Below, in pieces: positions 3,948 to 27,449 of a stretch of DNA of 64,000 nt. The position numbers and the translations under genes were made by a program. This DNA comes from a virus, in the IMG/VR virus record IMGVR_UViG_3300044631_000551, positions 1 to 64,000 of that record. The stretch is one strand, 5' to 3'. A model generated the notes under the pieces. That model made no database searches, was not told the origin of the DNA, and was given only the letters and a program-made list of their open reading frames with translations. The stretch's first letter is position 1. Each line of letters begins with the position of its first letter.

Positions 3948-3950
3948 ATT

Positions 3951-4973: not shown

Positions 4974-4985
4974 GACACTTTCTCC

Positions 4986-6411: not shown

Positions 6412-7287
6412 TTATCCGAGGATATTATCTCGAATATCCTTTATCCAGTATTTAGTAGCTTCGCCATTTTGTTTTATTCTATTATAGGTCGAAGCTGGTA
6501 GATAATCCTCGACCTGTTCGGCATAATCTAGATAGATATCAAACGGATATCCGAACGTTTCTTCTGGATACAGATCTTCATATTTCTTGATAGCTGGCAT
6601 CCAAAAGTTAATTACGATAGATTTAGAAGCCTTGATGTTATGTATTACTGTTTCTCTAGCTGAAATGGCAGTACCAATTAACACGTCGTGCTTCATATTA
6701 TAATGACGAGGTAGATTGGACTGTTGCTTGGTATTCGTTAGTTCTTGTAATAATGCACCATCAACAGCAGGAATTTCTTCAACCTTATCCATATTTACAG
6801 CAAAGACATTAGCATCAAACGCGCTATCGTTTTTAGGAAGCCCAATCATGTGGTACATGTTTAGTCGTTTGTTATCGCCATAGACACGAGGTTTGCTAAT
6901 TGCCAGTCTATGAGTTTCTAGAAGATCTATAATTTCATTTGTAAATGGATCTTTAAGAATCAATGCGCCAGCTGAGACAATAAAATGTTTTCCTTTACTA
7001 TTAAGACCAGCCAATACATCTATCGTAGAACTAACAGTATTGTTTTGATCCCAATCGTCAACTACGAACACTTCTGTTCCACAGAAATTAGTGACTAGTT
7101 TATCATAGTCTTTGAATATCTCAAACTCAGAACTTTTGTGAATGTTCTCTTCGTACATTTTATTGTACTTATCAACTTGAGATCTTGGCACCAAAACTAC
7201 TAGCTTATCGTGCGAAGAGTTCTTTAGGGCTGATTTGATTGTTAGAAACGAACCATGGTGCGTTGCTATAATAACTAAAGTTTTCAT
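6412..7287 (-). CDS. Hypothetical protein, degenerate GT8-like glycosyltransferase fold
   Basis: FDANVFAVNMDK resembles GT8 FNAGVLLINLxxW; LPRHYN and IVINF resemble GT8 C-terminal motifs; the expected DxD appears as SAG. Confidence 0.45.
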   Translation of the reverse strand: MKTLVIIATHHGSFLTIKSALKNSSHDKLVVLVPRSQVDKYNKMYEENIHKSSEFEIFKDYDKLVTNFCGTEVFVVDDWDQNNTVSSTIDVLAGLNSKGKHFIVSAGALILKDPFTNEIIDLLETHRLAISKPRVYGDNKRLNMYHMIGLPKNDSAFDANVFAVNMDKVEEIPAVDGALLQELTNTKQQSNLPRHYNMKHDVLIGTAISARETVIHNIKASKSIVINFWMPAIKKYEDLYPEETFGYPFDIYLDYAEQVEDYLPASTYNRIKQNGEATKYWIKDIRDNILG

Positions 7288-8186
7288 TCTTTGTGCTTGT
7301 ATGTTTCTTTCATGTGAGTAAAATACTTATCGATTCGTTCCTGATAGTTGTCGTGATATACACAGACAAATCCAGATTCAGGGTGCGAAAACAAAGCAGC
7401 GAGCTTATTGTAAAGTGTATCCTTGACGCCACAGCGGTCAAGAGCATTGTAAACGTGTTCGAATGTTCCACGACCTTTGCGTTCTTTTAGATCGATAAGA
7501 CCAAGTTTCTTTCCTAAGATAGTAGCTGATAATCCAGTTTCAGAACTCATACAGAAGTATGCTTTTTCGCATTTCTTTAGAAGTGGATACAGAGCCACGT
7601 CATTATTGATACACTTGTCACCCCAACGTTTCATCAGCATGGTCTGCCAAACCTTAGCAGTAATCGGATGCAGTTTAACATATGCGCCATCGGCTACGAG
7701 CTGATCAATTTTTTCCATGTCACACCATCCGCCCTCTTTAGTCAGCAGATTAGTTCCAGGAAGAATTACAAGTTCTTTTACAGGTAGATCGCTTTCTTCG
7801 TCAAGCAAATACTTGTCAGTTAGATTAGCTTTCAGTTTAGCAACAATAGCAAGACCTTCTTCGGTTGGTCCTTTTTTAATCACATTGATCAAATTCTGAA
7901 CAGAAATCGTAGAGTTACATGGCGAAATCATTACAACTTTAGTCAACAAATCTGTATACTTGTAGCCATGAATGCGATCTTTAGGTGATTCGTACGAGAT
8001 ATCGTATTCAATCTTAACACCATTTATAGTCTTAGGAATCAACTTAGAGATGTTTGCTAGTTCGTCGTTTTCATCAGAACGTAGTGCATTTCCAGTTTTC
8101 ATAAAATGTGTAACTGAGTCGCCGAGCCATTCGTTCGACGACATGTACATAAATGGTTTCTTTTTCTTTTTGACTTCTTCTACCAT
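7284..8186 (-). CDS. KpsS/KpsC-like (Capsule_synth) GT-B glycosyltransferase-like protein
   Basis: YVKLHP and LLKKCEKAYFCMSSETGLSATILGKKL resemble the KxHP and LL..ad.V.T..StvG.EAll.GKpV motifs of capsule-synthesis transferases. Confidence 0.55.
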   Translation of the reverse strand: MVEEVKKKKKPFMYMSSNEWLGDSVTHFMKTGNALRSDENDELANISKLIPKTINGVKIEYDISYESPKDRIHGYKYTDLLTKVVMISPCNSTISVQNLINVIKKGPTEEGLAIVAKLKANLTDKYLLDEESDLPVKELVILPGTNLLTKEGGWCDMEKIDQLVADGAYVKLHPITAKVWQTMLMKRWGDKCINNDVALYPLLKKCEKAYFCMSSETGLSATILGKKLGLIDLKERKGRGTFEHVYNALDRCGVKDTLYNKLAALFSHPESGFVCVYHDNYQERIDKYFTHMKETYKHKE

Positions 8187-8383: not shown

Positions 8384-11300
8384 TTACGTGCTTCTAGAAG
8401 TTTCAAAGCTGGTTGTTGTATCATATGTGGTTGTAGTAGACTTATTCGTATCGAACGTAGTCGTTTTACTTGTAGCAAAAGTCGTAGTCTTCGACGTATC
8501 AGTATTAAACACAGTGTTGGTTAAGAACACAGTGGATGTTGCAAACGTCGTTGTATATGTTGTATCAAATACGGTAGAAGTTGATTTGCTGGTTTCTTTG
8601 TTGGTATCAATCGTGGTATCACGGCTGGTACTGGTTGCAACAATAGTCGTTGTTTGGAATATAGTAGAAGTTCCAAACGTCGTAGTATATGTAGTCGTCG
8701 TATCAAACACACTAGTTGTTGATTTGCTTGTAGCAGTCAAGAAGTTAGTCGATCTACTTGTACCAATAGTTGTCGCGCGAGTAGTGTTCGTTCCAAATGC
8801 AGTTTCAGTACCAAACGTCGTAGTTGTATTTAAGCCAGTGTCAAAGATAGTATCGTAGGCTGTGGCAGTTGACTTACTGGTTGACGTAGCCTTCGAGGTA
8901 TCAGTAGATTTACTGGTTGACACGGTTGTATCAGTTGCTTTATTAGTATCAAACGTTGTATTAAACGCAGTAGTCGTACCAAAAGCAGTTGATTTAGAAG
9001 TTACAGTTGCTATATTTGTAGACTTAGTTGTATCTGTTGCTTTACTGGTTGATGCAGTCGTGTCAGTTGCTTTGTTCGTAGCAAAGAAGGTCGCATACGT
9101 CGTGGTTGTTCCAAACGTTGTAGTTTTAGAAGTATCAAACGTTGTATCAAATACGGTAGTTGTACCGAACGTTGTAGTTTTAGAAGTATCAAACGTTGTA
9201 TCAAACGTGGTAGTGGTAGCAAAAGAAGTAGTTTTGCTGGTATCAGTTGACTTGCTAGTAGAAACAGTAGTGTCCGTCGACTTGCTTGTGTTAAATGCAG
9301 TCGTGTAGGCAGTCGTTGTTCCAAACGTTGTAGTTCTAGAAGTGTCCGTTGTTTTACTTGTAGACCCAGTTGTATCAGTAGACCTGCTGGTGCTTACGGT
9401 TGTGTCGGTTGCTTTGCTTGTGTTAAAGACTGTGGTGTAAGCTGTAGTGGTATCAAACGTCGTGGTTCTGGAAGTATCAAACGTCGTATTAAACGTTGTA
9501 GTTGTACCGAACGTTGTAGTTTTACTTGTAGCAAACGTAGTATTAAACGTCGTTGTAGTAGCATACACAGTGGTCTTTGACGTATTAAACGTTGTGTTAA
9601 ATGTAGTAGTTGTAGCAAATATCGTCGTGGTTCCACGAGAAGTATCAGTAACTCGGGAAGTAGAACCAGTTGTATCAAACGTCGTATTAAACGTTGTGGT
9701 TGTGCCATACGTTGTAGTACGAGAAGTATCGGTTGCTCTAGAGGTAGAAAGCGTTGTGTCTTTTTCAGCAGTGCTGAGTGTAATTACGACACCTCTAGTT
9801 AAGTTTTTATTTCCCGCATCATTTTGTCCTATACGAACGTTGATATATCCTTGGGCAGATAAAAATGGCATTTCTTGATATTTTACTGCTGTTCTACTGT
9901 TAGTAAATTCGCCTTGTGTTACATCTACACCACCTGCAAATCCTAAAAAGTTTCTTGTTCCTGGCAACGCAGACGCGCCATAAAAACCAAAAACAATAGA
10001 TTGTGAACTGTCAACAGTTACAGCGTTATTTGCTGGTGCCGTGTCTATTGGGTTTGCGGTTGTTCCGACAAAAGAGGTAGTAACACCTGTAATTCTAACA
10101 CCTACGCCACCAGTAATCAATACTAATATTTTATCGTTTTGTGTCGCAGCGTTAATACCAGTAACTGTTGCGCCAATATCACCAGACGCCAGTACCTTAT
10201 AAGAACAGTTAAACGCAGCACGACCTGTACCAGCAGTGTTATTTGCAGTGTTTGCGATATTAGTCCAGTTTGTAGGTAAGACGTTTGTAACAGAAGTTGT
10301 TGTTGAGTTATAACCAAAGTCAAACAAGACAGCAACTTGTCCAACAGCTGCGGTGCCTGGAATTGCAATAGTTGAACCTGTAGATGTGGTACCACTATCA
10401 ACCGAAAATATTGACGTTGCAGTAAATGCTGTAATATACGTCGTATTAAATGTTGTGGTTGTAGCATACGTAGTCGTTCTGCTTGTATCAGTTGCTCTGC
10501 TTGTTGAACCAGTTGTATTAAATGTGGTACTAAATGTCGTTGTAGTACCAAATATCGTCGTTGTTCCACGAGAAGTATCAGTGGCTCGAGAAGTAGAACC
10601 AGTCGTATCGTAGGTTGTAGTCTTGCTTGTATCGGTTGCTTTACTGGTAGAACCAGTTGTATCAAATGTAGTTGTTCTGCTAGTGTCTGTTGTCTTTGAA
10701 GTAGAACCAGTCGTAGCATAAGATGTTAATCTTGAAGTTGCTGTCGCCTTAGAAGTACCTTGCGAAGTTTCAAATGTTGTTGTAGTTGCGTATGACGTAT
10801 TAAACGTGGTCGTCGTAGCAAATATTGTATTAAACGTAGTTGTTGTACCGAACGTCGTTGTACGAGAAGTATCAGTGGTTTTACTTGTACCTTGTGTGGT
10901 ATCAAAATTAGTTGTGGTCGCATACGAAGTATTGAATATCGTAGTCGTAGCAAACACTGTCGATCGGCTTGTGTCAGTAGCTTTGCTCGTGGAACCAGTT
11001 GTATTAAACATCGTTGTTCTGCTAGTGTCAGTGACTTTACTAGTAGAACCAGTTGTATTGAACGTTGTTGTTTTGCTTGTGTCGGTGGTCTTGGTCGTAT
11101 CTTGAGAAGTATCAAACACAGTAGTCGTAGCAAACGTAGTGTTAAACGTCGTTGTTGTAGCAAATGCTGTATCAAATACAGTAGTCGTAGCAAATGTAGT
11201 CGTTATAGTAGTATCGGTAGTTCTAGACGTTCCTTGCGACGTATTAAACACAGTCGTTGTTGCGTACGAAGTATTAAACGTCGTTGTCGTAGCAAATGTA

Positions 11301-11992
11301 GTCGTAGTATCGAATACAGTAGAAGTTGCTCTTGAAGTCGCAAAATTAGTAGTGACTAGAGTGTTCGTACTTCTGGTTGTCTGTGTTGTAATAACTGTAT
11401 CGGTTGTGAACGTCGTAATGTAAGTTGTTTCAAAACTAGTAACAAACGTGGTCGTAGTATCAAATACAGTAGTCGTTGACTTAGAAGTAGCAGTAACATT
11501 AGAAGTCGATGCAGTGGTATCGGTAGTTCTACTAGTATTAGTTAAGAACGCAGTATCTGTATTAAACGTTGTAACAAACGTCGTAGCGAAAACGGTATTA
11601 AACGCAGTAGTTGTTGACTTGCTTGTAGAAGCAGTAGTCAATCTATTTGTGTCGGTCAATCTTGATGTAGCAGTATCAAGATTAGTTAGTGTAGCATAAA
11701 CAGTTGTTTTGCTAGTATCAAACGTCGTGGTTTGACTTGTCTCAAATACCGTAGTTGTAGATTTAGTAGTACCAGTTGCACGCGACGTTTCAAAGACAGT
11801 AGCAACTCCAGCAGAAGCGCCATAGAAGTCAGAAAACTTAATAGTTCCAGATGTAGGAATCGCAGCATTAATCAGTGTGTTAGCCACAAACACACCACCA
11901 CGATAATACTCAGAAATTGAGTGTGGTGCTGTACCGCCAAACTCTAGGGCGATGCTTGATAAACTAATTGTGCCAGAAAACGGCAATGGCAT
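8384..11992 (-). CDS. 1202-aa Thr-rich virion protein: fibre-tip attachment N-terminus, two mirror-complementary Thr arms, central globular domain
   Basis: N-terminal SGTISLSSIALEFGG..SISEYYRGG..PTSGTIKFSDFYG motif, typical of genes following S74-chaperone fibres; TTTF/TSK repeats flank a ~220-aa beta-rich domain. Confidence 0.85.
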   Translation of the reverse strand: MPLPFSGTISLSSIALEFGGTAPHSISEYYRGGVFVANTLINAAIPTSGTIKFSDFYGASAGVATVFETSRATGTTKSTTTVFETSQTTTFDTSKTTVYATLTNLDTATSRLTDTNRLTTASTSKSTTTAFNTVFATTFVTTFNTDTAFLTNTSRTTDTTASTSNVTATSKSTTTVFDTTTTFVTSFETTYITTFTTDTVITTQTTRSTNTLVTTNFATSRATSTVFDTTTTFATTTTFNTSYATTTVFNTSQGTSRTTDTTITTTFATTTVFDTAFATTTTFNTTFATTTVFDTSQDTTKTTDTSKTTTFNTTGSTSKVTDTSRTTMFNTTGSTSKATDTSRSTVFATTTIFNTSYATTTNFDTTQGTSKTTDTSRTTTFGTTTTFNTIFATTTTFNTSYATTTTFETSQGTSKATATSRLTSYATTGSTSKTTDTSRTTTFDTTGSTSKATDTSKTTTYDTTGSTSRATDTSRGTTTIFGTTTTFSTTFNTTGSTSRATDTSRTTTYATTTTFNTTYITAFTATSIFSVDSGTTSTGSTIAIPGTAAVGQVAVLFDFGYNSTTTSVTNVLPTNWTNIANTANNTAGTGRAAFNCSYKVLASGDIGATVTGINAATQNDKILVLITGGVGVRITGVTTSFVGTTANPIDTAPANNAVTVDSSQSIVFGFYGASALPGTRNFLGFAGGVDVTQGEFTNSRTAVKYQEMPFLSAQGYINVRIGQNDAGNKNLTRGVVITLSTAEKDTTLSTSRATDTSRTTTYGTTTTFNTTFDTTGSTSRVTDTSRGTTTIFATTTTFNTTFNTSKTTVYATTTTFNTTFATSKTTTFGTTTTFNTTFDTSRTTTFDTTTAYTTVFNTSKATDTTVSTSRSTDTTGSTSKTTDTSRTTTFGTTTAYTTAFNTSKSTDTTVSTSKSTDTSKTTSFATTTTFDTTFDTSKTTTFGTTTVFDTTFDTSKTTTFGTTTTYATFFATNKATDTTASTSKATDTTKSTNIATVTSKSTAFGTTTAFNTTFDTNKATDTTVSTSKSTDTSKATSTSKSTATAYDTIFDTGLNTTTTFGTETAFGTNTTRATTIGTSRSTNFLTATSKSTTSVFDTTTTYTTTFGTSTIFQTTTIVATSTSRDTTIDTNKETSKSTSTVFDTTYTTTFATSTVFLTNTVFNTDTSKTTTFATSKTTTFDTNKSTTTTYDTTTSFETSRST

Positions 11993-15183: not shown

Positions 15184-16902
15184 TTAGAATGTACCGCCAT
15201 CCAAGTCAGCATAGACTACAGAAGTACCGTTAGATTGCAGAACCTTGCCGTCTGTGCCAACTGTTAGTTTTGCCAAAGTATTACCAGCGCCACCAATTAA
15301 CAAATCACCAACTGCATAAGTTGACTGACCTGTACCACCAGAAGTTGCTGGTAGAGCAGTTGACAAGCTCAATGTATTAGCTGTTAGTGCAACCGAAACA
15401 GTTGAGTTAGCAGTAATATTTACAGCACTTGAGTTAGCAACCAACGCACCAGTATTTAAGAACGATTGTAGCGTTGCGAACCCGAAGTTTACATTAGCAG
15501 TATCAACAGTTGTACTTGGTTCTGGAATTTGACCAGCGAATAATTTGAAGACGCCATCGCTTGCGTCACGGAATAGACCAGAGTACGAAGTAGCTGATGC
15601 ATTACCGAATGTACCATAGAAACCGATGTCAAGCGTATTGGCGGTAGTTTGACCACGAGCCAACGAGATGATAGAGTCAGTTACAGATAGGTTTGTAGTA
15701 TCAACAGTTGTTAGCGTACCATTGATATCAAGATTACCAGATAGAGTTAGACTTGTAATAGATAGATCGGTATTAACATGAATACCTGTCGTGTTTACAG
15801 TTAGAGTTGAACCAGTTGTTACACCGACCGCATCAGCTGAAACAGAAATACCATTAGCAGCAACAACGTGAACACCAGTTGCGTTAGCAACAAGACCATC
15901 ACCAGCTGTTACATTAATACCCGAAGCGTCAACCGAAATACCGTTAGCAGCATCAGCGAATACACCGCTAGAGTTAGCGATAATACCGTTGTTTGCTACG
16001 ACAGCGATTGTTGCAGCGCCACCTTCTCCTGAAGAGGAACCAGAAATACCAACGCCAGCTGAAATAGTAGCAACGTAGTCACCAGATGTACCTGAACCGA
16101 GAGCAACGTCGCCTGAAAGTTGCGATGTAGCAATAGAAAGGTTGGCGGTATTAACAAACACACCAGTTGCGTTTACAGTTAGAGTACCGTCACCGCGAAG
16201 AACGTTAATACCTGAACCATCAACCGAAATACCGTTAGCAGCATCAGCGAATACACCGCTTGTGTTAGCGATAATACCGTTGTTAGCATTAACAGCAACA
16301 GCGTCAGCAGCGACTGAAATACCAGCGCCAGCACCAACATTAAGTGTTACACTACCAGAAGAACCACCATCAGTTAAACCGTTACCAGCAACAACTTCAG
16401 TAATATCACCAGATGTACCAGTAATTAAAATTGCGGTAGAGTTAGAAGAAACAGTAACACCGTTGGCACCGATAAAGAATACATCATCGTTTGCGCCAGA
16501 AGATGGGTCTAATTGTAGAATACCTTTGTTAGCTTCGGTGTTAGCAACAGCAAGCAGGTCATAAGATACACCTTCATTTGGTGTCAACCAGTAAACTGCT
16601 GAACCATTTGAATGAAGAACAGCACCATCAGCACCAAGCGAACCATTAGCAAAGATAGCTGTTGGTTGTAGGTTAGCAACGATAACTTTATCAATACCGC
16701 TTGTGGCGTTAGCAACAAGAGCTTGGTTAGCAGTTAGTGTACCAGGAACGCGGCGACCACCGATAGCGATGCTACCAGTAGAACCGTCTGGGTGACCTAA
16801 GAATAGTATTTCACCATTCGAGGTATACGCAAGTTCACCATTGGCCAACCCAGCTGGAGCAGCGTTGGTGGTACTGCGTTTAATTTGAATTTTATTGGCC
16901 AT
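15184..16902 (-). CDS. Fibre protein with internal Gly/Ala/Val repeats
   Basis: IQIKRS...GELAY N-terminus; repeated ANNGIIANxSGVFADAANGISVD; C-terminal LDGGTF. Confidence 0.78.
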   Translation of the reverse strand: MANKIQIKRSTTNAAPAGLANGELAYTSNGEILFLGHPDGSTGSIAIGGRRVPGTLTANQALVANATSGIDKVIVANLQPTAIFANGSLGADGAVLHSNGSAVYWLTPNEGVSYDLLAVANTEANKGILQLDPSSGANDDVFFIGANGVTVSSNSTAILITGTSGDITEVVAGNGLTDGGSSGSVTLNVGAGAGISVAADAVAVNANNGIIANTSGVFADAANGISVDGSGINVLRGDGTLTVNATGVFVNTANLSIATSQLSGDVALGSGTSGDYVATISAGVGISGSSSGEGGAATIAVVANNGIIANSSGVFADAANGISVDASGINVTAGDGLVANATGVHVVAANGISVSADAVGVTTGSTLTVNTTGIHVNTDLSITSLTLSGNLDINGTLTTVDTTNLSVTDSIISLARGQTTANTLDIGFYGTFGNASATSYSGLFRDASDGVFKLFAGQIPEPSTTVDTANVNFGFATLQSFLNTGALVANSSAVNITANSTVSVALTANTLSLSTALPATSGGTGQSTYAVGDLLIGGAGNTLAKLTVGTDGKVLQSNGTSVVYADLDGGTF

Positions 16903-16903
16903 T

Positions 16904-17164
16904 TTAGAATGAACCTCCGTCTAGGTTTAATTGTTCGACCACATATGTGTCGTTTGCAGAATAATAAACTAATGTGGAATTGTTCGCAGGGGTTGATTCT
17001 ACCACATCAACCAATGAATCTAATCTTGTAACTGCAGAAGTAACACCCGCAGCAGAAGTAACAGTAACAGCGTCAGCCTGTGTAGAAGGCTTAATTGAAC
17101 CGCTTGTTTCAACAACCTTTAGACTAAGAGCGTTTCGATTGTTAGCTTTCACTACCGTAACCAT
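16904..17164 (-). CDS. Small virion protein ending LDGGSF
   Basis: LDSLVDV..NNSTLVY and C-terminal LDGGSF, shared with the neighbouring fibre. Confidence 0.65.
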   Translation of the reverse strand: MVTVVKANNRNALSLKVVETSGSIKPSTQADAVTVTSAAGVTSAVTRLDSLVDVVESTPANNSTLVYYSANDTYVVEQLNLDGGSF

Positions 17165-17170
17165 ATTTAG

Positions 17171-17497
17171 TTATCTCGTAACTTCAGGGTTGATAGTAAC
17201 AATGCCTTCAACGATTCGAGAAACGACATTGCCAGAAGAAACCAATTCTAAATCCCATACGTATCTACCACCAGTAATGTTTGCGCTTGTAGCAGCATTC
17301 ATAGAAATGGTAATTACACCATTTGCAGCACCAGTGACAGTGAACGAATTATAGGTTGTAGAGGTGTAGTGCTTGCGCATCTGCGAACGACCTGTGTAAG
17401 TCGTTAGATTAATTGGAGTACCAGCATCATCTGCAACTTCAATCGTTGTCGCGAAGTCGGTGCCTTGGTCAATGAATAGATTTAGTTTGGTTGCCAT
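17171..17497 (-). CDS. Conserved small virion structural protein (BppU-N-like adaptor)
   Basis: NLFIDQGTDF...INLT.YTGRSQMRKHY...GRYVWDLEL...RIVEGIVTINPEVT pattern. Confidence 0.75.
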   Translation of the reverse strand: MATKLNLFIDQGTDFATTIEVADDAGTPINLTTYTGRSQMRKHYTSTTYNSFTVTGAANGVITISMNAATSANITGGRYVWDLELVSSGNVVSRIVEGIVTINPEVTR

Positions 17498-17506
17498 AAG
17501 ATAGCC

Positions 17507-18376
17507 TTATTGAATTTCGCTAGTATATTGTTCCGTATCGCCATCAACAATTGTCGTCACAATAGTTCCAACAATGGTATTAAATACAGTATCGGTAGAT
17601 CTAGAAGTTGATGCAGTCGTAGATTTTGATATCGATGCACCAGTAGCAAACACCGTATCATATTTAGTGGTTGTACCATAGAACGTATTAAATGACGTTG
17701 TTGTTGCGGTCGCTTTAGAAGTAGACTTAGAGGTTGATTTACTGGTATCATAAACCGAACCAAATACAGTAGTTGTTGCAAAAGAAGTATTTTTGGAAGT
17801 ATCAGTCGATCTAGAAGTATCAGTTGTTCTAGAAGTTTCATTTCCTGTTAATGTTAATTTGCTAGTTTCTCTTGTGGTTCCAACTGCTATATCACTACCT
17901 GATTCTTTATCAAAAATAAATGTAAATGTATCTGTTAGATAAGTCGTAGTGGTATTTACACCACCAGTAATATAGGTTGTAGTCGTACCATATACAGTAG
18001 TCGTCGCATATGTTGTTAATATTGTTGTATCTGTACTGCGAGCTGTACCAGTTAAAGTGCTTCTACTTACTTCTTTAGTAAGAAAAACTGGTTCGCCAGA
18101 TACTGTAGTTGTTATTGTTGTATTATATGTTGTAGTCGTTGAAACTTCATTAGAAGTTCCGAATACAGTATTATAAACAGTGTCATAAACTGTTGTAGTA
18201 TTTGTAGATTTGGATGTTAGCTGGCTTGTATCAGTTAATTTTTGCGTTTCAAAATTAGTATCATATCCAGTAACATAAAGAGTTACAAACGTAGTGTTAA
18301 ATACTGTTGATGTTGAACGCGAAGTTTGTCCTGTCGTTTGTCTAACAATATAAGAATTTAACAAAAACCCGCCCAT
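17507..18376 (-). CDS. 289-aa Thr-rich protein with nested mirror-complementary segments
   Basis: Same TTTF/TSK repeat alphabet as the 1202-aa protein; follows directly after the 575-aa fibre. Confidence 0.8.
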   Translation of the reverse strand: MGGFLLNSYIVRQTTGQTSRSTSTVFNTTFVTLYVTGYDTNFETQKLTDTSQLTSKSTNTTTVYDTVYNTVFGTSNEVSTTTTYNTTITTTVSGEPVFLTKEVSRSTLTGTARSTDTTILTTYATTTVYGTTTTYITGGVNTTTTYLTDTFTFIFDKESGSDIAVGTTRETSKLTLTGNETSRTTDTSRSTDTSKNTSFATTTVFGSVYDTSKSTSKSTSKATATTTSFNTFYGTTTKYDTVFATGASISKSTTASTSRSTDTVFNTIVGTIVTTIVDGDTEQYTSEIQ

Positions 18377-18377
18377 A

Positions 18378-20105
18378 TTAGGCTCGCTTGTAATATAGTG
18401 TTACTTTTAGTCCCTTCGCGCCACCACCAGCCACGTCGATATCCATAGTAATTTCGTCGTCATCAGCAATACTGGTTGATGATAGAACTGCAGCAGTAGC
18501 AGCAGTCGTACTTGTTTTTTCGTTCGCGTCAATTGTTAGTTTGGTACTCAAAATAGTAGAGCCATTTACATTAATGTCAACCGTAGGAGTTCCCGAACTA
18601 GAAGCAGTTGCTAAAGAAGCGCGAGGAATTTTAGTTAGAGTCCAAGCAAATGGAGCGCGGAATGTAATCTTTGCTGTACCAGTTGTAATGCTAGTAGTTT
18701 CATCAGAAAGAGCAAGAGTTAGTGATTGTTCAATACCAAGAGCCACTGCATTTGTTGAGAGAACAAATCCGTTCGCTACGTTTAATGTACCAGAAATAGT
18801 TGTGTTTCCAGTTGTGGTATTATTACCAGTTGTAACTACATTACCAGTTGCGACATTGCCAGAGACACTTAATGTTCCTGTTAGCGTGGTATTACCAACT
18901 GCCATGGTATTAACAATTGTTACTGCGCCATTAACAGCAAGTGTGCTTCTTAGATTAACAGCACCACCAACGTTAGCAGTAGATACGATATTTGCATATC
19001 CATCAACGTTTAGATTACCAGAAATATTCGTGTTACCAACGTTTAGAGTCTGCGCAGTAATCGAGCCAGTAAACGAAGGAGAAGCAGAAAGAACTACTGA
19101 ACCAGTACCAGTTGAAGTTGCTGTACCTGTACCACCGCGAGCGACTGGTAGAGTGCCGACTGCGACAGCAGTTGCGTTTACAAACAAACCAGTAGAGTTA
19201 GCAATAATACCAGAGTTAGCTAGAACCGATAAAGTTCCTGTCGAGGTAATTGGACCACCAGTTAGACCTGAGCCAGAAGCAACAGAAGTTACAGTACCAG
19301 TTGTTAGTGTTGACCAATAAACATTACTGGTGCCAGCGCCAGATGTAAGAACTTGACCAGCCGAACCTTGTGAGCCATTAGCTGTAATTCTAGTAGTACC
19401 AAATGCAACATTACCAGAAATAGTGACTGTATTTGAGAAAGTTGCTGCGTTTGTAACTGTAATGCTGTTTGAGAACGTAGCAAAATTAGTTACAGTAATT
19501 CTATCGGAGAATGTAACATTAGCTTGGAAAGTACTGTTCGTGCTAGTTGTTAAACCACCACCAATAACAACGTTGCCAGAAATATTAGCAGTACCAGTTA
19601 CAGTCAGAGCAGCATCAGGAGTTGTATTATTTACACCGACTCTATTGTTTACCGAATCAACAAATAAAGTTCCTGAGTCAAAGTTAGAATTTCCTGAGAA
19701 AACAGTCGGAACGGCTGCATAATACCAGCTACTACCGTTGGCGCTATTAGCAGCCAGAAGATAGTGAGTTGCGTTCGCAGCTGTACCAGTGTTGACACTG
19801 CTTAGAGTGTCAATAGTCATCGCACCCTTAACGGCGAGCGAACCGACAGCAGACAAAATAGAGTTTGAAGCAATTACCAGATTAGCAGAAGAAACAGTTA
19901 AGTTTCCGCCAGCTGAACCAGTCACAGTAATGTTGTTTCCGACGAAGCCGTTAGCCACAAAGTAGCCACTGATTGCTGCGTTACCAGAAGCAGTATTTGA
20001 TTCTACCGTAACGACCTGCACAAACGCATTCGCTATTTGGTTGGTTCTTGTCAACCAAGTCGAAAAATTGTCTGTAGTCGCGACGTTTGCGAATGTAATT
20101 GCCAT
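18378..20105 (-). CDS. Tail fibre-like structural protein
   Basis: N-terminal TDNFSTWLTRTNQI; NFDSGTLFVD..NNRVG and TGTGSVVL segments shared with the 554-aa fibre; C-terminal beta-sandwich. Confidence 0.78.
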   Translation of the reverse strand: MAITFANVATTDNFSTWLTRTNQIANAFVQVVTVESNTASGNAAISGYFVANGFVGNNITVTGSAGGNLTVSSANLVIASNSILSAVGSLAVKGAMTIDTLSSVNTGTAANATHYLLAANSANGSSWYYAAVPTVFSGNSNFDSGTLFVDSVNNRVGVNNTTPDAALTVTGTANISGNVVIGGGLTTSTNSTFQANVTFSDRITVTNFATFSNSITVTNAATFSNTVTISGNVAFGTTRITANGSQGSAGQVLTSGAGTSNVYWSTLTTGTVTSVASGSGLTGGPITSTGTLSVLANSGIIANSTGLFVNATAVAVGTLPVARGGTGTATSTGTGSVVLSASPSFTGSITAQTLNVGNTNISGNLNVDGYANIVSTANVGGAVNLRSTLAVNGAVTIVNTMAVGNTTLTGTLSVSGNVATGNVVTTGNNTTTGNTTISGTLNVANGFVLSTNAVALGIEQSLTLALSDETTSITTGTAKITFRAPFAWTLTKIPRASLATASSSGTPTVDINVNGSTILSTKLTIDANEKTSTTAATAAVLSSTSIADDDEITMDIDVAGGGAKGLKVTLYYKRA

Positions 20106-20324
20106 TTATTTTCTCTCCGCCAGAACCGCTACGATTAGCGATTTTAACTCATTTATGTTTTGTTCTAATGAAACAACTTTGTTTTCTAACTCATCGACCT
20201 TACTAAACTTCTCGCGTCGTTTGCGATATGCTTCTAACGCTTGTACATTGGTATTTAGTACTGCACCTGAACTCGTATCTTTTACTAAATCTGGAGCATC
20301 TTCAATTTTCAAATAATTCGTCAT
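20106..20324 (-). CDS. Conserved small T4-like protein with C-terminal coiled coil
   Basis: KIEDAPDLVKDTSSGAVLNTN motif; tightly packed in the operon. Confidence 0.7.
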   Translation of the reverse strand: MTNYLKIEDAPDLVKDTSSGAVLNTNVQALEAYRKRREKFSKVDELENKVVSLEQNINELKSLIVAVLAERK

Positions 20325-21928
20325 TTTTGCAGCGCGATAACTCGTAGGTCAGTAATTCTAGGTGGGTTATATTCATAACCCGAATCTGCTGTCAATACAA
20401 TTTTAATGCTGTATTTCTTGAAGCGAACGAAGTCGCCTGTTTCAGGAGCAGTTGCGCTGTAAGCAAAATATCCTTCACTGTTCTTGTATTCAGCAGGAAT
20501 TTCGAACTCAAACTCACGGAAATCGTTTAGATTCTTAGGATCTGAGAAAACACCAGCTGGCGTCACTTGAGTCAGTTCGATCCAAGGAAGACTATCGAAG
20601 TCTCTAAAATCTTCGGCTGCTTGGAACTTACCATAAACTACAACACCAGTGTTCTTAGGTTTGTATGCGTCAACATAAACTTTAATATCTTCTGCATCTT
20701 GACCATCAGCTAGTCCGATAACGCGAGAAACATATTTCGCATCAGCAGCACCTTCGCGCGTTGTTTCGTTTGTTGTATTAGCGTTTACTCTATTTGTAAC
20801 GAGTAACATCTGCGAACCATCAAGTCTAATAATTGGAGCAACATATTCATTCGTAGCATTTAGTACAGCTTGAACTTGTAATGAAGAATTACCAGCTAGG
20901 ATACTTCCGTTAGCTTCGTTGCTATAACTTAGCAAGTATCTAGATTTATCTGCGAATGTTTTTTCTTCAGAATCAGAAATATTGAAGTAGTTAGGATCTT
21001 CTGAGAAATTAGAGCCTTCTAAGAAAGTACCACTCATTTTTAGAGTTAGTTCGCTAGTTGGCTTTTTATCAATATTTAATCTAGGAATGATAGAATGATA
21101 TTCGTAGTCTTTAATTGATTCCACTGTACCATTTAATAGTCTTACAGTTTTAGTTGTACCATTTACAATCATTTGACGATAGATTTGAATTTGATCATTC
21201 GCAGTAAATGTTTGACCTGCAACAGTATCAACCAACATGACGTATTTTTCGCTAGTAGAATCTTCGTAACGATACATTGCGACAAACTTACCTTTTTCTG
21301 AATATGTTTCGCCAAATGCGCCAACCGAGTCAGAGCTATAAGGCATTAAACTTTGTACACGATTTACATCTTTAATTACGAGATATTCTAGATTTTCTTT
21401 ATTTCTAAGAGTGACTGTACCAGTAGTATTTACGTTAAATTTAGCGCGATACAATACGAACTTAATATCTTGATTGACAAGTTCTGAGTAAGTAGAGTCT
21501 GTTTCTGAATAAAATGCTTTTTCTGTAAGCGGATTACTATTGACAATAGTATCAGTAATCAAATCTCGTTCGCCACGAGTAGCACCCCAAACAGCAAAGT
21601 CAGAACTTGGCGTTTGAATAGCAAAGCAATAGTTCTTAGAAGAATCCAAGAAAACTGGAGTATCAAATTGAAAAGTAGTTTCAGTAGCACCAGTGTTAGA
21701 TACAGAAATAGAATCTGTCTCAAGAGTTACAGTAGATCCTGGAACAATTGAGTTTCTATCTGGTAGACCATCGGCCATTTCCATCAAAAATACTTTAACG
21801 CTAGATGCGCCTTTTCTCTTGAAGAATAAGCCAAGTTTAGTAGCATAGATGCCCGTTGCCTCTCCAGGAGAAGCGACTGAAAATGCTTGAGCTAAAAACT
21901 TTAACGAATTGGTTGTTGCGGTTGGCAT
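20321..21928 (-). CDS. Virion structural protein (C-terminal part of DUF4815/VrlC-like family)
   Basis: LAQAFSV...GIYATKLGLFF, T.FQFDTPVFL, QDIKFVLYRAKF, PRITDLRVIAL. Confidence 0.72.
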   Translation of the reverse strand: MPTATTNSLKFLAQAFSVASPGEATGIYATKLGLFFKRKGASSVKVFLMEMADGLPDRNSIVPGSTVTLETDSISVSNTGATETTFQFDTPVFLDSSKNYCFAIQTPSSDFAVWGATRGERDLITDTIVNSNPLTEKAFYSETDSTYSELVNQDIKFVLYRAKFNVNTTGTVTLRNKENLEYLVIKDVNRVQSLMPYSSDSVGAFGETYSEKGKFVAMYRYEDSTSEKYVMLVDTVAGQTFTANDQIQIYRQMIVNGTTKTVRLLNGTVESIKDYEYHSIIPRLNIDKKPTSELTLKMSGTFLEGSNFSEDPNYFNISDSEEKTFADKSRYLLSYSNEANGSILAGNSSLQVQAVLNATNEYVAPIIRLDGSQMLLVTNRVNANTTNETTREGAADAKYVSRVIGLADGQDAEDIKVYVDAYKPKNTGVVVYGKFQAAEDFRDFDSLPWIELTQVTPAGVFSDPKNLNDFREFEFEIPAEYKNSEGYFAYSATAPETGDFVRFKKYSIKIVLTADSGYEYNPPRITDLRVIALQK

Positions 21929-21965: not shown

Positions 21966-24900
21966 TTACAATCCAACTTCTGTGCCTATTACTGCTGGTC
22001 CTTGATCCGGAAGTCCAGTCTGCGGATTGACTTGTGATATAGTCATAGGATTGGTTGCGTCGTAGAACAAATAATATCCAGCACCAATTATAGATGGAAT
22101 ATATCTCAAGGCTCCTTCTGGGATTCCAGCGCCAACATTTCCTGGTCCTGCTTTTAGTGGTCCATCAAGAATAGTAACGACTGGAATCTGAGTTGGATCG
22201 CATGGTTTACATGGGTCTAGCGAAGTGCTATTAGTAAAGCTAATTGTTTTCTCTGTTGTAGCAAGAACAACCGCAGCAGAACTATAATATGTAGCTGTTA
22301 CAGTAAGAGTTGTATTTGCTGGATTGCTCCAACCAATTCCTACAGAGCGACCGCCATTAGTTAATGCTTGGTTGCTTGTAATTGAAGCAGTACCGACGTT
22401 TGCTGCAGAGAAATTTGTACCAGACAAGCTTCCCGATGGAGCATTACCAACTACGCCAATAGTCACATAGCCACCAGTTACACGATTGGCTGTCATATCG
22501 CCACGGAATTCTAGGTTGACCCAGTTGACTGCTTTTGCAGTTGAAGCGTCTGACATGTAGTAGCTGTTGTTGTTTCCAGATATTACATTTAACATGGTTA
22601 GTTTTAGGTCACCATCAGATTCAAACTTAGTCAACTGAACTGGTTTTACAACTTCAGAAACAGTACTATTATTGCCACTAACTTTTAGTTTTACATAAAC
22701 TGTTTCAACCATTGAAGGGAATGTAAATGTAATGTCTGATGGATTTTGTACTGAAGAATTAGCAGAACTTGGTGTTACACAACCAGTTGAACATTGAACG
22801 AAAGTCCATTCCCATGCAACAGGTGCTTCAAGAGTTGAACCTTCTGGAGCAATAACACCTCTATTTGTTCTATCAATAAATGATAAAGTATGAGAAGTTC
22901 CATCTTCGACAACCAATGTTCCGACAACATCAAAGTCAGCAACAATTAATGGAGTCTTTGGTACTAGTGGTGGTTCAACAACTGGATTTCCTGGAACTTC
23001 TTCGACAAGAGAAATTACAAATGCGCCAAGGGATCTTGAAGAAGGAGTGGCTGGAGATACGGTGTCAGTTACAGACAACACGTGGTTTCCTAGCGATAGA
23101 TTTCCTGGAATTGTAGCAACTGCATACAACACGCCAGTTGAATCAGAATATAGAGCTTCGCCTTGTAGACCATCAACAGTTACATTTGAAGCGATCTTAG
23201 TTACACCATACGCGATATTTCCTGGCGTTGCCAACGAAGAATAGTCAACGTTATCTATGCTAATGTAATGTCTAGTCGATGGTTTTAATCCGCGAGCAAT
23301 TAACTTAACAGTTCTATTCATAGGATAGATATACTGTTCGTTGTATTGAGTGGTCGTAGGTGTAACCGTCATAGTTGTTACAGGATATTTTAACGATTGC
23401 TCAACGTCAGCAAATCTTGTCTTATCTAGTTCTACAGCACCGCTATCATATTTGTCATTAGGATCAATTGCGATTTCGCGAGTGGCATATTCCTGAGAAA
23501 TAAACTTAGTATTTGCATCGTAGCCAACAGTTACAAAGTTCTTACTGTAGCTGATGTTATTAGCTGTATCTCTAATTACTGAAGTAGATGTGCTATTTGC
23601 ATTGTTAATTTCAATCTCAACTGTTTCAGTAGAAACCATTGGACGACCGATACCAGTTGTTGGGTCGATCACGATTGTGTGCTCTGCATCACCTAGTCTT
23701 GCTAGGTTATGATTATCAAATGGATCAACGAAGAAACCATTTTTGAAGCGATCTACGCCATTAGTATCTGGGATATTTAACTGAGTAGCTTTTTGCTCTA
23801 AGCGAGTTAGAGTGGTAAAATACTCAAGAGAAGAAACGCGCTGGTCGATAGCAGCAATATCTTTCATTCTATAACGCTTATTAGAAATAGGCGAGATATT
23901 CATTGTGTAAGGCGCATTAATTACGTACTGCGATTCAGCAACAGTCAATGAAGGATATGGTGGAATATAAGTTGTCGCTACAACCATCTGGTCGTCAGAC
24001 TCTGCTCTTGGCGCACGAGGGACTATTGCAGATTCGCCCTCTACAACTTCAAATACACCCTTAGAAGTTAGAACAACAACATCACGACGAGGTAGATAAT
24101 AAGTTAGATTACATTCAAAGTTTTGACCAGGATATGGATTGTAATCAGTTGTACCTGAATTAAACAGTGTCGCTGGCGGTGGGTTGACTGTTGTTGCCGA
24201 AGCATTAGAAGTCAAGTTCGCTGTATTTGCTCGATATGGACGGAAATCAATAGAATCACGCAAAGCAAAACGACGGTTGCGTGTAGCAGAATAGTAAGAA
24301 GGAATTTCCCAAGTCCTTACATACTGCGAAGTGTTTGCGCCGATAGCGTCATTTACGCTATAAGACTCAACCGAGAAGAAGCCTTTACCAAGAGTAGCAT
24401 TAGCAGCGAAACAATCAAAGTCAACGATTAGATACGAGTTTGAAAGATTAGCAGTAGATTTAGGATATAGAACTGCGTGGTCATAGTGCGTATCACGCTG
24501 ACCGAAATCGTATGTAAAGAATTGTTTGATATCGCTAACAGCTTGATTGTTATCTGAGTTTAAATCTTTAGTTTTTGAGACGCGGTTAATTTTAAGCACG
24601 TCTGGAACACCAAGATTAAATCCATAAGGATGAACGATCTCGTAAGTATTAGCTGATAGACTTGTAGAGAATGCAGTATCTACAGAAAGTTGGGTTGTGT
24701 TGGCGATAGCTGTAACTTTCTTAGTTTCGCCATTTGCTTTAATATAGTTACCAACCTTGAAATCGGTACTAAATGCAGTAGAAGTACCAGTTACAGTATT
24801 TCCTGAAGTAGCAATAGCACCAGCAAGCGAACCATTGTAGAAACGGACTAATTGGTTGCGTTTAATTTCTTTGGCGATTGGGCGAGCGTTAGACTTTCTA

Positions 24901-27449
24901 GCGTAAGCATTAACTTTAATAGCTGTCGCGCCAGAAGCAGTAAAGTCAGGTCCAAGATCAACAGTTAAACTTTGTAGAGTTGAGTTTAACGCAATTGTTC
25001 TGTTGCTTGTAGACAAACTAATAATAGAACCTTTCTCGTGGAAACGAGCATAGGTATTTGCTACAGCAGCTGCACCGTGAGCAGTTCTTGTTGTCATCGT
25101 AGTATTACTTACGATCGAGTTTACGATTACTGCAGTATTTCCTGCTACTGTAATCTTCTCACCTACAACAAAATCACGCTGGAAGAATGTGCTAGTTCCA
25201 GTAATGGTGGTTGTAGTAGAGTTAGCAACAGAAACTGTACCACTTAGATTTACAGTCGTTAGAGCTGCACCAGTAAGAACGATATCTACTTTTTCTTCAG
25301 AGAAATCGGTGTTATCTGAGAAGCCAAAGAACGAACCACCGTCGGTTAAGCTGATAGTTGTAGTACCATTGTTTGCTAGGGAAGCATCAATAGAAGCATT
25401 GTAATAGAACTCGGTATCAGAATCGCCTTGTTCATTTCTTAGATCTCTGACAGCGCGATTCGTTAAACCAAATACGAGGGCTGTGTAGTCAGTAGCTTCT
25501 AGCTTAGGATCGACAAACCCATCAATAGTTAAGTTTACAGTTAAGCCTGTACCCGAACCGCCTGTAACAGCAGCGCCAGACAATGTTGGATTGGCAGTAT
25601 ATTTACCACCCTGAATTAGAGAAATAGATGTGACGTTGCCTGAAGCATTGTTTACCGTTATAAGTGCAGTCGCAGAGTCACCAAGACCACCACTTACTGT
25701 AACAATGTCACCATTTGTATATCCACCACCGTTGGCAGAAATAGTAGCAGTGTAAACAGAGTTAGCGAGTTGCGAAACAGCAACGTCAGCAAACGCATTA
25801 GCAGTATTGGCATATACAATAGAACGAACTTTATTAAAGTTTTGATTTTCGTTCATCTTGACATTAAACAGATACATGTTGTATTGTGCTAATGGAGCAC
25901 CTTTGTCTGCGCTGTCGGTATCATAAACTAGGTTACGAATATTAGCTGTACCAATAACAGTACCAGTAGCAGAACTTGTTGAATTCAAGCTGGCAGTAAT
26001 AGCATTCTGGAATGAATCATATAGATTTACTGAAGCCGATTGGTCAGCTGGGAAATATCCACGAAGTTCTTCAACAGGAATGTAGCTACCATAATTCATT
26101 GAAACAATTTGTTGTACTGGTGATTCAGTATCAACACCGCGACGAGAACTCAATACTTGGTTTGACTTAAAGTCAACAGCATTACCACGAACATATGCTT
26201 TACCAGCACCGATGTCATAGTAGAATTCTTGAGTATTGGCGGATGGTTTAGAAGTAATGGTAAAGTCTTTTACAGTATAGTGACCTGACTCATCATATGT
26301 ACGCTGAGCCATTTCTTGGCCAACTGCGCCACCAACAGAAGTGTTATTCCATCTTAGAATATTGTCTGGACCAAATTCAGCCACAGCAAAGAATACTTCA
26401 GTATTAGGAAGTGCAGTTTTCGCATAAGAAACGAAATTAGTTTCTAGTTTTAGTCGGTGTGCGCCAGGAGCTGCGCCATTTGATAAGTCAGCAGAGTTAT
26501 CATACAACGAAGAATCAGCAAATTCGTCTACTATCGTTTCGGTTGTTTCCATACCAACGATAATACCATTAGCAGCAGAAGGACCACCAGCCGAAGCATT
26601 TAGAATTAGAGTTTGTGTATCTGTCTTTACGAAGAAACCTTTTTGATACACAATACCTTCTGAGACGCTTAGAGCATAAGCATTACCAACGCCAGTATAT
26701 CTGTTATCACCAGGAGTTGTAAGAATAGTTGTGTTTGCTAGATTATTGCTAAAATTAAGCTCGATTGCAGATACAGTCGTACTTACAGATGTGTTAGATA
26801 GAAGTTGAATTGTTTCTCCAACAGTAAAATCTTTTCTAACATTAGTAATAGTAATTTCGTTAGAGGTAGTATTGGCAGCTGTGATTAAACCACGAGCATC
26901 AGAAGTTGTACCTCTAATACGACCATTTACAGCAAAATTGGTAGCATTAGCAACAGTAATGACTGATGTTCCGAGATAAGATTTATCTTCGCCATAAATT
27001 ACAATAGATTCGCCTTCTTGGAATCCGCTAATACCGTTCTTACCAGTAGAAGTATATTTTACAAAAAACTTTGATGGTTCTGCGGATGCAGCAAAGCCAA
27101 GTTCGCCTTTTAGAATTCTAGCTTGAACGCCAGAGTTAGCGCCATAAAGAATAGCGCCAACATAAGAAGTGTTAGAAGCATTAAATGTAGTATTAGAATC
27201 AGGAACAGCAACATATACAGCATCAGGAATTACTGTCGGAGCACAGCCCTTAATGATACTGCCTTGCTTGAACACGCCATCGCCAAATCGTTCGATTTGG
27301 TTTTGTAGAATAGTTTGAAGCTGAGTTAATTCTCTAGCTTGAACTGGAAATGATGGTCTAAACAATACTCGATGAAACTTTTTGGTTTCATCAAAATCGT
27401 CATAGTATGGTGCCGACGCTAGAGTTGTGTTTGCAATATCAGCTGACAT
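21966..27449 (-). CDS. Large virion structural protein (DUF4815/VrlC-like)
   Basis: APYYDDFDETKKFHRVLFRPSFPVQARELTQLQTILQNQIERFG, RTYDESGHY, DRFKNGFFVDPF. Confidence 0.85.
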   Translation of the reverse strand: MSADIANTTLASAPYYDDFDETKKFHRVLFRPSFPVQARELTQLQTILQNQIERFGDGVFKQGSIIKGCAPTVIPDAVYVAVPDSNTTFNASNTSYVGAILYGANSGVQARILKGELGFAASAEPSKFFVKYTSTGKNGISGFQEGESIVIYGEDKSYLGTSVITVANATNFAVNGRIRGTTSDARGLITAANTTSNEITITNVRKDFTVGETIQLLSNTSVSTTVSAIELNFSNNLANTTILTTPGDNRYTGVGNAYALSVSEGIVYQKGFFVKTDTQTLILNASAGGPSAANGIIVGMETTETIVDEFADSSLYDNSADLSNGAAPGAHRLKLETNFVSYAKTALPNTEVFFAVAEFGPDNILRWNNTSVGGAVGQEMAQRTYDESGHYTVKDFTITSKPSANTQEFYYDIGAGKAYVRGNAVDFKSNQVLSSRRGVDTESPVQQIVSMNYGSYIPVEELRGYFPADQSASVNLYDSFQNAITASLNSTSSATGTVIGTANIRNLVYDTDSADKGAPLAQYNMYLFNVKMNENQNFNKVRSIVYANTANAFADVAVSQLANSVYTATISANGGGYTNGDIVTVSGGLGDSATALITVNNASGNVTSISLIQGGKYTANPTLSGAAVTGGSGTGLTVNLTIDGFVDPKLEATDYTALVFGLTNRAVRDLRNEQGDSDTEFYYNASIDASLANNGTTTISLTDGGSFFGFSDNTDFSEEKVDIVLTGAALTTVNLSGTVSVANSTTTTITGTSTFFQRDFVVGEKITVAGNTAVIVNSIVSNTTMTTRTAHGAAAVANTYARFHEKGSIISLSTSNRTIALNSTLQSLTVDLGPDFTASGATAIKVNAYARKSNARPIAKEIKRNQLVRFYNGSLAGAIATSGNTVTGTSTAFSTDFKVGNYIKANGETKKVTAIANTTQLSVDTAFSTSLSANTYEIVHPYGFNLGVPDVLKINRVSKTKDLNSDNNQAVSDIKQFFTYDFGQRDTHYDHAVLYPKSTANLSNSYLIVDFDCFAANATLGKGFFSVESYSVNDAIGANTSQYVRTWEIPSYYSATRNRRFALRDSIDFRPYRANTANLTSNASATTVNPPPATLFNSGTTDYNPYPGQNFECNLTYYLPRRDVVVLTSKGVFEVVEGESAIVPRAPRAESDDQMVVATTYIPPYPSLTVAESQYVINAPYTMNISPISNKRYRMKDIAAIDQRVSSLEYFTTLTRLEQKATQLNIPDTNGVDRFKNGFFVDPFDNHNLARLGDAEHTIVIDPTTGIGRPMVSTETVEIEINNANSTSTSVIRDTANNISYSKNFVTVGYDANTKFISQEYATREIAIDPNDKYDSGAVELDKTRFADVEQSLKYPVTTMTVTPTTTQYNEQYIYPMNRTVKLIARGLKPSTRHYISIDNVDYSSLATPGNIAYGVTKIASNVTVDGLQGEALYSDSTGVLYAVATIPGNLSLGNHVLSVTDTVSPATPSSRSLGAFVISLVEEVPGNPVVEPPLVPKTPLIVADFDVVGTLVVEDGTSHTLSFIDRTNRGVIAPEGSTLEAPVAWEWTFVQCSTGCVTPSSANSSVQNPSDITFTFPSMVETVYVKLKVSGNNSTVSEVVKPVQLTKFESDGDLKLTMLNVISGNNNSYYMSDASTAKAVNWVNLEFRGDMTANRVTGGYVTIGVVGNAPSGSLSGTNFSAANVGTASITSNQALTNGGRSVGIGWSNPANTTLTVTATYYSSAAVVLATTEKTISFTNSTSLDPCKPCDPTQIPVVTILDGPLKAGPGNVGAGIPEGALRYIPSIIGAGYYLFYDATNPMTISQVNPQTGLPDQGPAVIGTEVGL

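Follow-up and report, generated by a model that had tools for sequence, protein, structure and literature searches.

The DNA analyzed here (the window, 64,000 nt) comprises the first 64 kb of the 84,438-bp IMG/VR virus record IMGVR_UViG_3300044631_000551, the completeness of which is estimated at ca. 51%. Within the window are genes for a large terminase of the T4 type, a baseplate wedge protein resembling gp6, and a gp7-like protein; among annotated terminases, the one of Stenotrophomonas phage DLP_6 is nearest (56% identity), followed by those of cyanophages and pelagiphages. The source of the Thr-rich protein of 289 aa that is described in the following is an uncultured T4-like lake phage. 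Its gene, the immediate neighbors, and two longer Thr-rich paralogs are found at these positions:

17507 to 18376, minus strand: Thr-rich open reading frame, 289 aa plus stop.
18378 to 20105, minus strand: fiber-like gene of 575 aa, rich in Gly, Asn, Thr, and Ala, upstream of the Thr-rich gene.
17171 to 17497, minus strand: LtfC-like gene of 108 aa, downstream of the Thr-rich gene.
8384 to 11992, minus strand: Thr-rich paralog of 1202 aa (37% Thr).
29193 to 35363: Thr-rich paralog of 2056 aa (29% Thr), the N-terminus of which is gp7-like.

The reading frame and its 289-aa translation are as given in the preliminary description of this locus. The Thr-rich gene starts two bases past the stop codon of the 575-aa fiber-like gene, and the 108-aa gene on its other side matches PHROG 3304 (phrog_3304, "L-shaped tail fiber protein assembly") with E=9e-24 and the Pfam LtfC-like family weakly, under the curated cut-off. 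Flanked by these fiber-like and LtfC-like genes and with the gp6- and gp7-like baseplate genes upstream, the Thr-rich gene is located in the baseplate/fiber module of a tailed phage. Both the 575-aa and the Thr-rich gene are missing from L009, L010, and L016 (positions ca. 3181 to 5324), which are among the closest relatives and in which the LtfC-like neighbor is 93% to 96% identical; when compared with window positions 17171 to 21928, they carry a 72-aa gene directly against the LtfC-like gene. Because the two genes are absent together, we regard the pair as an accessory insertion/deletion cassette.

Between the gp7-like gene and this cassette, window positions 21966 to 27449 (minus strand) encode a structural protein of 1827 aa with a match to DUF4815 (E=3e-44). 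Downstream of the cassette, at positions 15184 to 17164 of the minus strand, two proteins of 86 aa and 572 aa end alike in L-D-G-G-[ST]-F, and the same ending is found in the homologous genes of L091. At positions 59930 to 63045 (minus strand), a CHASE2 domain is fused to an adenylate/guanylate cyclase domain in a protein of 675 aa, the gene of which adjoins that of a 363-aa FecR-domain protein; the CHASE2-cyclase and FecR matches are both above the Pfam cut-off.

The 289-aa protein consists of 32% Thr and 12% Ser (together 44% of residues), 10% Phe/Tyr, and 7% Lys/Arg, includes a single Pro, and is devoid of His, Cys, and Trp. Its homologs were detected solely by synteny and peptide-pattern scans and are restricted to a small range of contigs from freshwater viruses and metagenomes, while an alignment-based second viral scan gave no further ones. 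We distinguish four forms of 289, 314, 520, and 544 aa, a count that includes the query (the other three are called L011, L012, and L017), plus a near-identical variant of the 544-aa form. Across these homologs, the first ca. 90 and the last ca. 76 residues are conserved around a variable middle, residues 1 to 12 are invariant in all five aligned sequences, and the conserved arms show dN/dS values of 0.11 to 0.25 relative to the query. The Thr-rich open reading frame is a real gene under purifying selection.

Database searches gave no other relatives of the protein. Pfam holds no family for it up to E=0.1 and PHROG none up to E=0.01; tblastn with the low-complexity filter on returned no match from 50,697 phage records, phmmer none from 1.84 billion representatives, and a word-indexed protein search none at E≤0.001 among 6577 candidates (covering lengths of 158 to 506). 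A search of PDB sequences up to E=10 yielded one chance match only (E=0.73) and no chain of the T4 fiber protein gp37. The ESM Atlas has no model of the protein, and the feature matches obtained there (0.80 to 0.83) are in a range that shuffled or reversed proteins attain one third of the time. No account of Thr-rich, mirror-coded phage proteins emerged from a search of the literature.

The two giant paralogs share 46% to 54% local identity with the 289-aa protein, and the mirror pattern is unmistakable in the one of 1202 aa. When its residues i and j are paired such that i+j is constant, the antidiagonal i+j=1267 carries 65 aromatic/basic and three same-class pairs, compared to 28 for the next best antidiagonal, and Thr stands opposite Thr at every other position along ca. 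460 residues without a gap. We trained a 20-letter matrix of pair log-odds on these arms and then applied it to the 289-aa protein, and we built a reduced matrix of six residue classes because the 20-letter matrix overfitted for rare residues. On the 1202-aa paralog, which is the training protein itself, the antiparallel score is 457.7 versus 36.6 for parallel pairing, and the corresponding values of the 2056-aa paralog are 148.5 to 176.6 and 44.8 to 51.6. A non-repetitive stretch of ca. 200 residues (residues ca. 530 to 735) occupies the exact center of the mirror arms of the 1202-aa paralog, which is where a fold-back stalk would present a distal domain.

For the 289-aa protein, the preliminary description had proposed an arrangement of nested and branched complementary stems reminiscent of RNA secondary structure, with an outer stem of 13 residue pairs in mirrored spacing. 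We indeed found that all 13 pairs fall on the single antidiagonal i+j=285 (from R20-F265 to N76-Y209) and that the spacing of 6,4,4,4,4,4,6,4,8,4,4,4 is identical on both arms. Eight of these pairs are aromatic/basic, the others being F-A, Y-A, F-F, Q-Y, and N-Y, so that register 285 carries eight aromatic/basic pairs and one same-class pair. By plain count of aromatic/basic pairs, the register i+j=255 exceeds it with nine, and a maximum of at least nine is reached in 1 of 2000 full shuffles and 35 of 2000 key-label shuffles, in which the key positions are kept and their labels permuted. Taken by itself, the pair count thus supports the mirror register weakly and ambiguously.

The pair matrices are more discriminating. 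With the 20-letter matrix, the two best mirror segments join residues 18-79 to 206-267 (score 36.6) and residues 113-137 to 181-205 (score 23.8), which coincide with the outer stem and the long inner stem of the preliminary description. The score of the outer segment is attained in none of 300 full shuffles (maximum 23.6), in none of 300 shuffles with Thr fixed (maximum 23.7), and in 3 of 300 key-label shuffles; with the six-class matrix, the outer stem (residues 13 to 79) reaches 39.5, which is matched by 0 of 500 full, 0 of 500 Thr-fixed, and 4 of 500 key-label shuffles. Scored over its whole length, the outer arm (residues 14 to 79) has 39.1 at register 285, whereas the runner-up among 143 antiparallel registers has -21.2 and the 143 parallel registers do not go beyond 0.9. 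A single gap-free antidiagonal thus stands far above all others, though its signal falls well short of that in the paralogs; in this protein of one third Thr the residue is set opposite itself at alternate positions on both i+j=285 and the register 318 of the inner segment. With the same matrices, the local maxima of parallel registers amount to 23 to 24, and by local score it is only the outer stem that rises above these parallel controls. A dynamic programme for nested structures recovered the two stems under strict penalties and replaced the outermost stem in part by local hairpins under mild ones; since its outcome depends on the parameters, we excluded it from the evidence.

The inner stem had been described as a longer run of pairs inside the outer one, and five of these (R113-F205, I119-F199, Y123-K195, Y129-R189, and Y135-R183) all lie on i+j=318. 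Its local score of 23.5 to 23.8 is not above the best parallel control (23.3 to 23.9) and, with the six-class matrix, is attained by 187 of 500 key-label shuffles. Register 318 gives the whole inner arm (residues 113 to 137) a score of 20.7; of 212 registers, the runner-up has -1.6, and no parallel register exceeds 7.2. It should be borne in mind that the segments for some of the inner-stem rank tests were picked from the best local matches, which favors rank 1. Other elements of the earlier proposal were not confirmed. For the VSGE side hairpin, register i+j=189 scores -19.6 and does not figure among the best registers of residues 80 to 93, the pair Y146-K173 past the Gly bulge belongs to a register (i+j=319) that scores only 7.0, and the term "branched" overstates the case, given that the C arm is continuous from residue 181 to 267 and only residues 80 to 112 of the N arm are left out. 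The two long stems and the mirrored spacing of the outer one are thus confirmed, but the VSGE hairpin, the Y146-K173 pair, and the rich branching are not. What the pairing code supports is a putative single hairpin of ca. 94 pairs with one looped-out piece of 33 residues and a loosely coded tip (residues 138 to 180), which divides the gene as follows:

18338 to 18376, minus strand: residues 1-13, conserved hydrophobic N-terminal strand, defined by invariant alignment columns.
18140 to 18337, minus strand: residues 14-79, N arm of the outer stem (i+j=285), defined by pair scores.
18041 to 18139, minus strand: residues 80-112, excursion of the N arm that has no partner in the C arm and holds VSGE.
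17966 to 18040, minus strand: residues 113-137, N arm of the inner stem (i+j=318), defined by pair scores.
17837 to 17965, minus strand: residues 138-180, tip with a GG bulge, weak pairing on i+j=319, and the turn FDKESG.
17762 to 17836, minus strand: residues 181-205, C arm of the inner stem, defined by pair scores.
17564 to 17761, minus strand: residues 206-271, C arm of the outer stem, which follows the inner C arm without a break.
17510 to 17563, minus strand: residues 272-289, conserved C-terminal end (IVTT.. DGD .. QYTSE.Q), defined by alignment.

The face of the arms that does not carry the code is made of Ser, Asp, Asn, Ala, and Gly with some Val/Leu, and the N-terminal strand and the C-terminal end may together form an attachment foot. 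The 289-aa protein resembles its two paralogs in the high content of Thr (29% to 37% in the latter), in the rule of a single antidiagonal on which Thr:Thr pairs alternate with aromatic:Lys/Arg pairs, and in its virion-module setting. Its arms are, however, 4 to 7 times shorter, with a far weaker statistical signal, and unlike the paralogs it has no globular tip domain and loops a module of 33 residues out of one arm; its ends are short conserved hydrophobic strands, where the paralogs instead have a gp7 or N-terminal domain. The earlier view that it is the smallest case of the code applies among the three Thr-rich paralogs that this genome encodes and the four distinct homologs of 289, 314, 520, and 544 aa. 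Both of its arms best match one and the same part of the 1202-aa protein, which indicates that their pairing was not inherited from a paired region there, and we therefore rejected the idea that it had been copied from a paired stretch of that paralog.

If the two ends of the protein zip together, the register is expected to stay anchored to the termini at any protein length. We found the end-anchored register i+j=L-4 (with L as protein length) to rank first for the N arm in all four distinct forms, with scores of 24.5 in L011 (next best -9.6, 168 registers), 31.5 in L012 (next best -18.1, 374 registers), and 24.2 in L017 (next best -3.8, 424 registers). L011 and L012 add little to this because their arms closely resemble those of the query (72% to 74% identity overall), so that their agreement is not independent. 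More informative is L017, in which residues 43 to 66 differ from the query and the partner stretch is altered in step: Thr:Thr pairs have become Lys:Tyr or Phe:Lys at three positions, the reverse has happened at others, and this segment alone places the register first of 452. Four distinct homologs are too few for true covariation statistics.

The inner stem and the excursion can be followed into the longer forms as well. At the register mapped from the query (347), the inner stem of L011 scores 19.5 versus -5.9. A module homologous to the excursion 80-112 measures 37 residues and contains a DG turn in both L011 and L017, and the strong segments of L017 lie on the antidiagonals 540 and 577, which are 37 apart and thus differ by the length of one looped-out module. 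This recurring piece of 37 residues carries an F-L-D-G turn and bulges from either of the two arms. The center of the mirror falls on a Gly turn motif in three of the four forms, i.e., ESG in the query (residues 158 to 160), DGNQ in L011, and DGKQ in L017. In L012, it lies off any turn motif, the excursions give weak local stems only, and the best local score of the full matrix is higher for parallel (32.2) than for antiparallel (29.4) pairing. Across the homologs, the local margin of antiparallel over parallel registers is small or reversed. Scored with the full matrix of 20 letters, the outer stem of the three homologs drops to sums of 4.6, 7.9, and -26.0, and since only the reduced matrix restores these scores, the result depends on the scoring scheme.

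AlphaFold2 gave a pLDDT of 28 from the single sequence and of 26 from a five-sequence alignment, and in neither run did any of the 289 residues reach 50. Two nested stems that are specific to antiparallel pairing and kept in homologs of other lengths are what a fold-back beta ribbon predicts, and we consider such a ribbon the best explanation of the 289-aa protein and a moderately probable one. The analysis establishes the mirror complementarity, that it is unique and conserved, and its virion-module context, whereas physical beta pairing, its location within one chain, the oligomeric state, and the place on the virion are inferred. The protein, a paralog of two giant Thr-rich proteins in the same genome, would serve a T4-like phage as a small appendage of the virion, possibly a fiber or whisker. 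Its chain would turn at residues 158 to 160 (ESG within FDKESG) and zip back as a two-stranded antiparallel beta ribbon of ca. 94 residue pairs, first joining residues 14-79 with 206-271 and then 113-140 with 178-205, while the 33 residues from 80 to 112 would be looped out of the N arm. A beta ribbon rises by ca. 0.33 nm per residue pair, and ca. 94 pairs would thus extend over ca. 30 nm, with the conserved hydrophobic N and C termini ending side by side as the base. The coded face of the ribbon would show Thr:Thr pairs in alternation with aromatic:Lys/Arg pairs, and the irregular order and spacing of these key pairs might act as a register code for strands of otherwise low complexity. Cross-strand aromatic-Lys/Arg and Thr-Thr pairs are favorable in antiparallel sheets, and one alignment would be strongly preferred because all other registers set Lys/Arg against Thr or against Lys/Arg.

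The same mirror could arise from arms that pair between chains, the N arm of one copy with the C arm of another in antiparallel orientation. A symmetric antiparallel homodimer predicts a mirror within the sequence equally well, such that the register data do not separate the two cases, and phage fibers are usually oligomers; an inter-chain duplex would, however, have no need for the Gly-containing turn motif at the mirror center of three of the four forms, and the conserved hydrophobic N and C ends would meet only in the fold-back form. We view pairing between chains as unlikely, though less so than any of the other alternatives. Next in order, and improbable too, comes a flexible, mostly disordered, and possibly O-glycosylated Ser/Thr-rich spacer for which the mirror would have no structural meaning. 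The 44% of Ser plus Thr, the very low AlphaFold2 confidence in both runs, and the lack of relatives in Pfam, PHROG, the PDB, and the phmmer search of 1.84 billion representatives (0 matches) would all agree with it, but low confidence is also expected from an alignment of one to five sequences. Mucin-like disordered domains are rich in Pro, Thr, and Ser and lack a regular hydrophobic pattern, whereas the 289-aa protein has a single Pro, 10% aromatics, mostly at even spacings (4 or 6) within the arms, and many beta-branched residues. Neither the one register far above all others and kept in homologs nor the dN/dS of 0.11 to 0.25 would be expected of such a spacer, and two candidate open reading frames of 291 aa and 300 aa at window positions 6412 to 8186 (minus strand) match no Pfam family at E≤0.01 and hence no glycosyltransferase domain.

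It is more doubtful still that the protein forms a beta-solenoid or a meander of short local hairpins, with the long stems as a by-product of alternating aromatic and basic blocks. Blocks of aromatic-x3 and basic-x3 do alternate, parallel local scores reach 23 to 32 within the family, and the dynamic programme with mild penalties favors some local hairpins. Yet the whole-arm score of the best parallel register is 0.9 versus 39.1 for the antiparallel one, and all other antiparallel registers are at -21.2 or below, which periodic blocks would not lead one to expect; the 1202-aa paralog has 457.7 antiparallel versus 36.6 parallel, albeit as the training protein, and the spacing of key pairs is irregular (4, 6, 8) but exactly mirrored. 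Beta-solenoids with Thr ladders such as the TxT antifreeze proteins of insects consist of direct repeats of constant period, whereas direct repeats in the DNA of the Thr-rich gene are short and irregular, and we rejected a constant-period solenoid based on the parallel versus antiparallel scores, whole-arm and local. Least of all do we believe that the mirror is a feature of the nucleic acid, i.e., an mRNA or DNA hairpin that sets TTT (Phe) opposite AAA (Lys). These codons are reverse complements; 13 of the 15 Phe residues are encoded by TTT and 10 of the 11 Lys residues by AAA, and the mRNA folds somewhat better than shuffles of it (z = -2.6, 20 shuffles). Complementarity on the implied register is, however, 0.379 including G-U pairs (rank 122 of 424) with a longest complementary run of 5 and a value of 0.18 at codon position 2, and the middle base of a Thr codon (ACN) does not pair with that of another. 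The sole DNA inverted repeat spans 23 nt with 78% match and is situated elsewhere; with this register value and no repeat in place, a long DNA inverted repeat and mRNA complementarity were both rejected as the source of the mirror.

Among known systems, the nearest published idea that we know of for the proposed fold-back ribbon is the needle of phage T4. The needle domain of gp37, the tip protein of the long tail fiber, is reportedly the subject of work by Bartual et al. in 2010 (PDB 2XGF). gp37 forms trimers in which iron atoms bound by His residues hold the chains together, and its chain runs to the distal tip and returns so that up and down strands are antiparallel. We know of no mirror code of Thr, aromatic, and basic residues described for gp37. 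A published account places seven iron atoms along the needle (PMC6957217). What the two would have in common is a phage fiber chain going out to a tip and back; they differ in that the His-x-His iron motifs of gp37 are absent from the 289-aa protein (no His among 289 residues), and there is no sequence or profile similarity between them in the PDB (up to E=10), Pfam, or PHROG searches.

OspA of Borrelia has a single-layer beta-sheet, and designed hairpins are stabilized by cross-strand aromatic/cationic pairs. Like the proposed ribbon, these are extended two- or three-stranded antiparallel sheets without a conventional hydrophobic core, but they have ca. 10 to 20 residues per strand, whereas the 289-aa protein would have ca. 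94. To the best of our knowledge, they have no role in phage fibers and no register code over sequence of low complexity. RNA stem-loops, finally, are comparable by analogy only. They share nested antiparallel complementarity, a bulged module, and changes in length by whole hairpin modules, but the 289-aa case would rest on the alphabet and physics of proteins, and its own nucleotide sequence is not complementary.

If the arms pair, this fiber architecture would be one that is absent from the papers, family libraries, and solved structures that we searched, namely a single-chain rod of ca. 30 nm kept in register by a simple two-letter code. It would also lie in a blind spot of current methods, since HMMER-based searches and AlphaFold2 gave nothing for Thr-rich, mirror-coded proteins. 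The particular value of the 289-aa protein is in its size, its natural length variants, and its looped-out module, which make it a practical object, whereas expression and structure determination are difficult for the giant paralogs. More tentatively, and with the balance of probability rather against it, phages may have evolved a protein equivalent of base pairing in which the order and spacing of aromatic:Lys/Arg pairs on a background of Thr:Thr pairs set the register of very long ribbons, and in which stalk length and side modules change through the insertion of matched or self-contained pieces, as is suggested by the forms of 289, 314, 520, and 544 aa. The 289-aa protein would then be the minimal natural example, of a size suited to crystallography, NMR, and mutagenesis, and a template for rods of programmable length. 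As such, it could test whether register is set by the code, explain variation in the length of phage appendages, and give designers a rule for building long beta ribbons.
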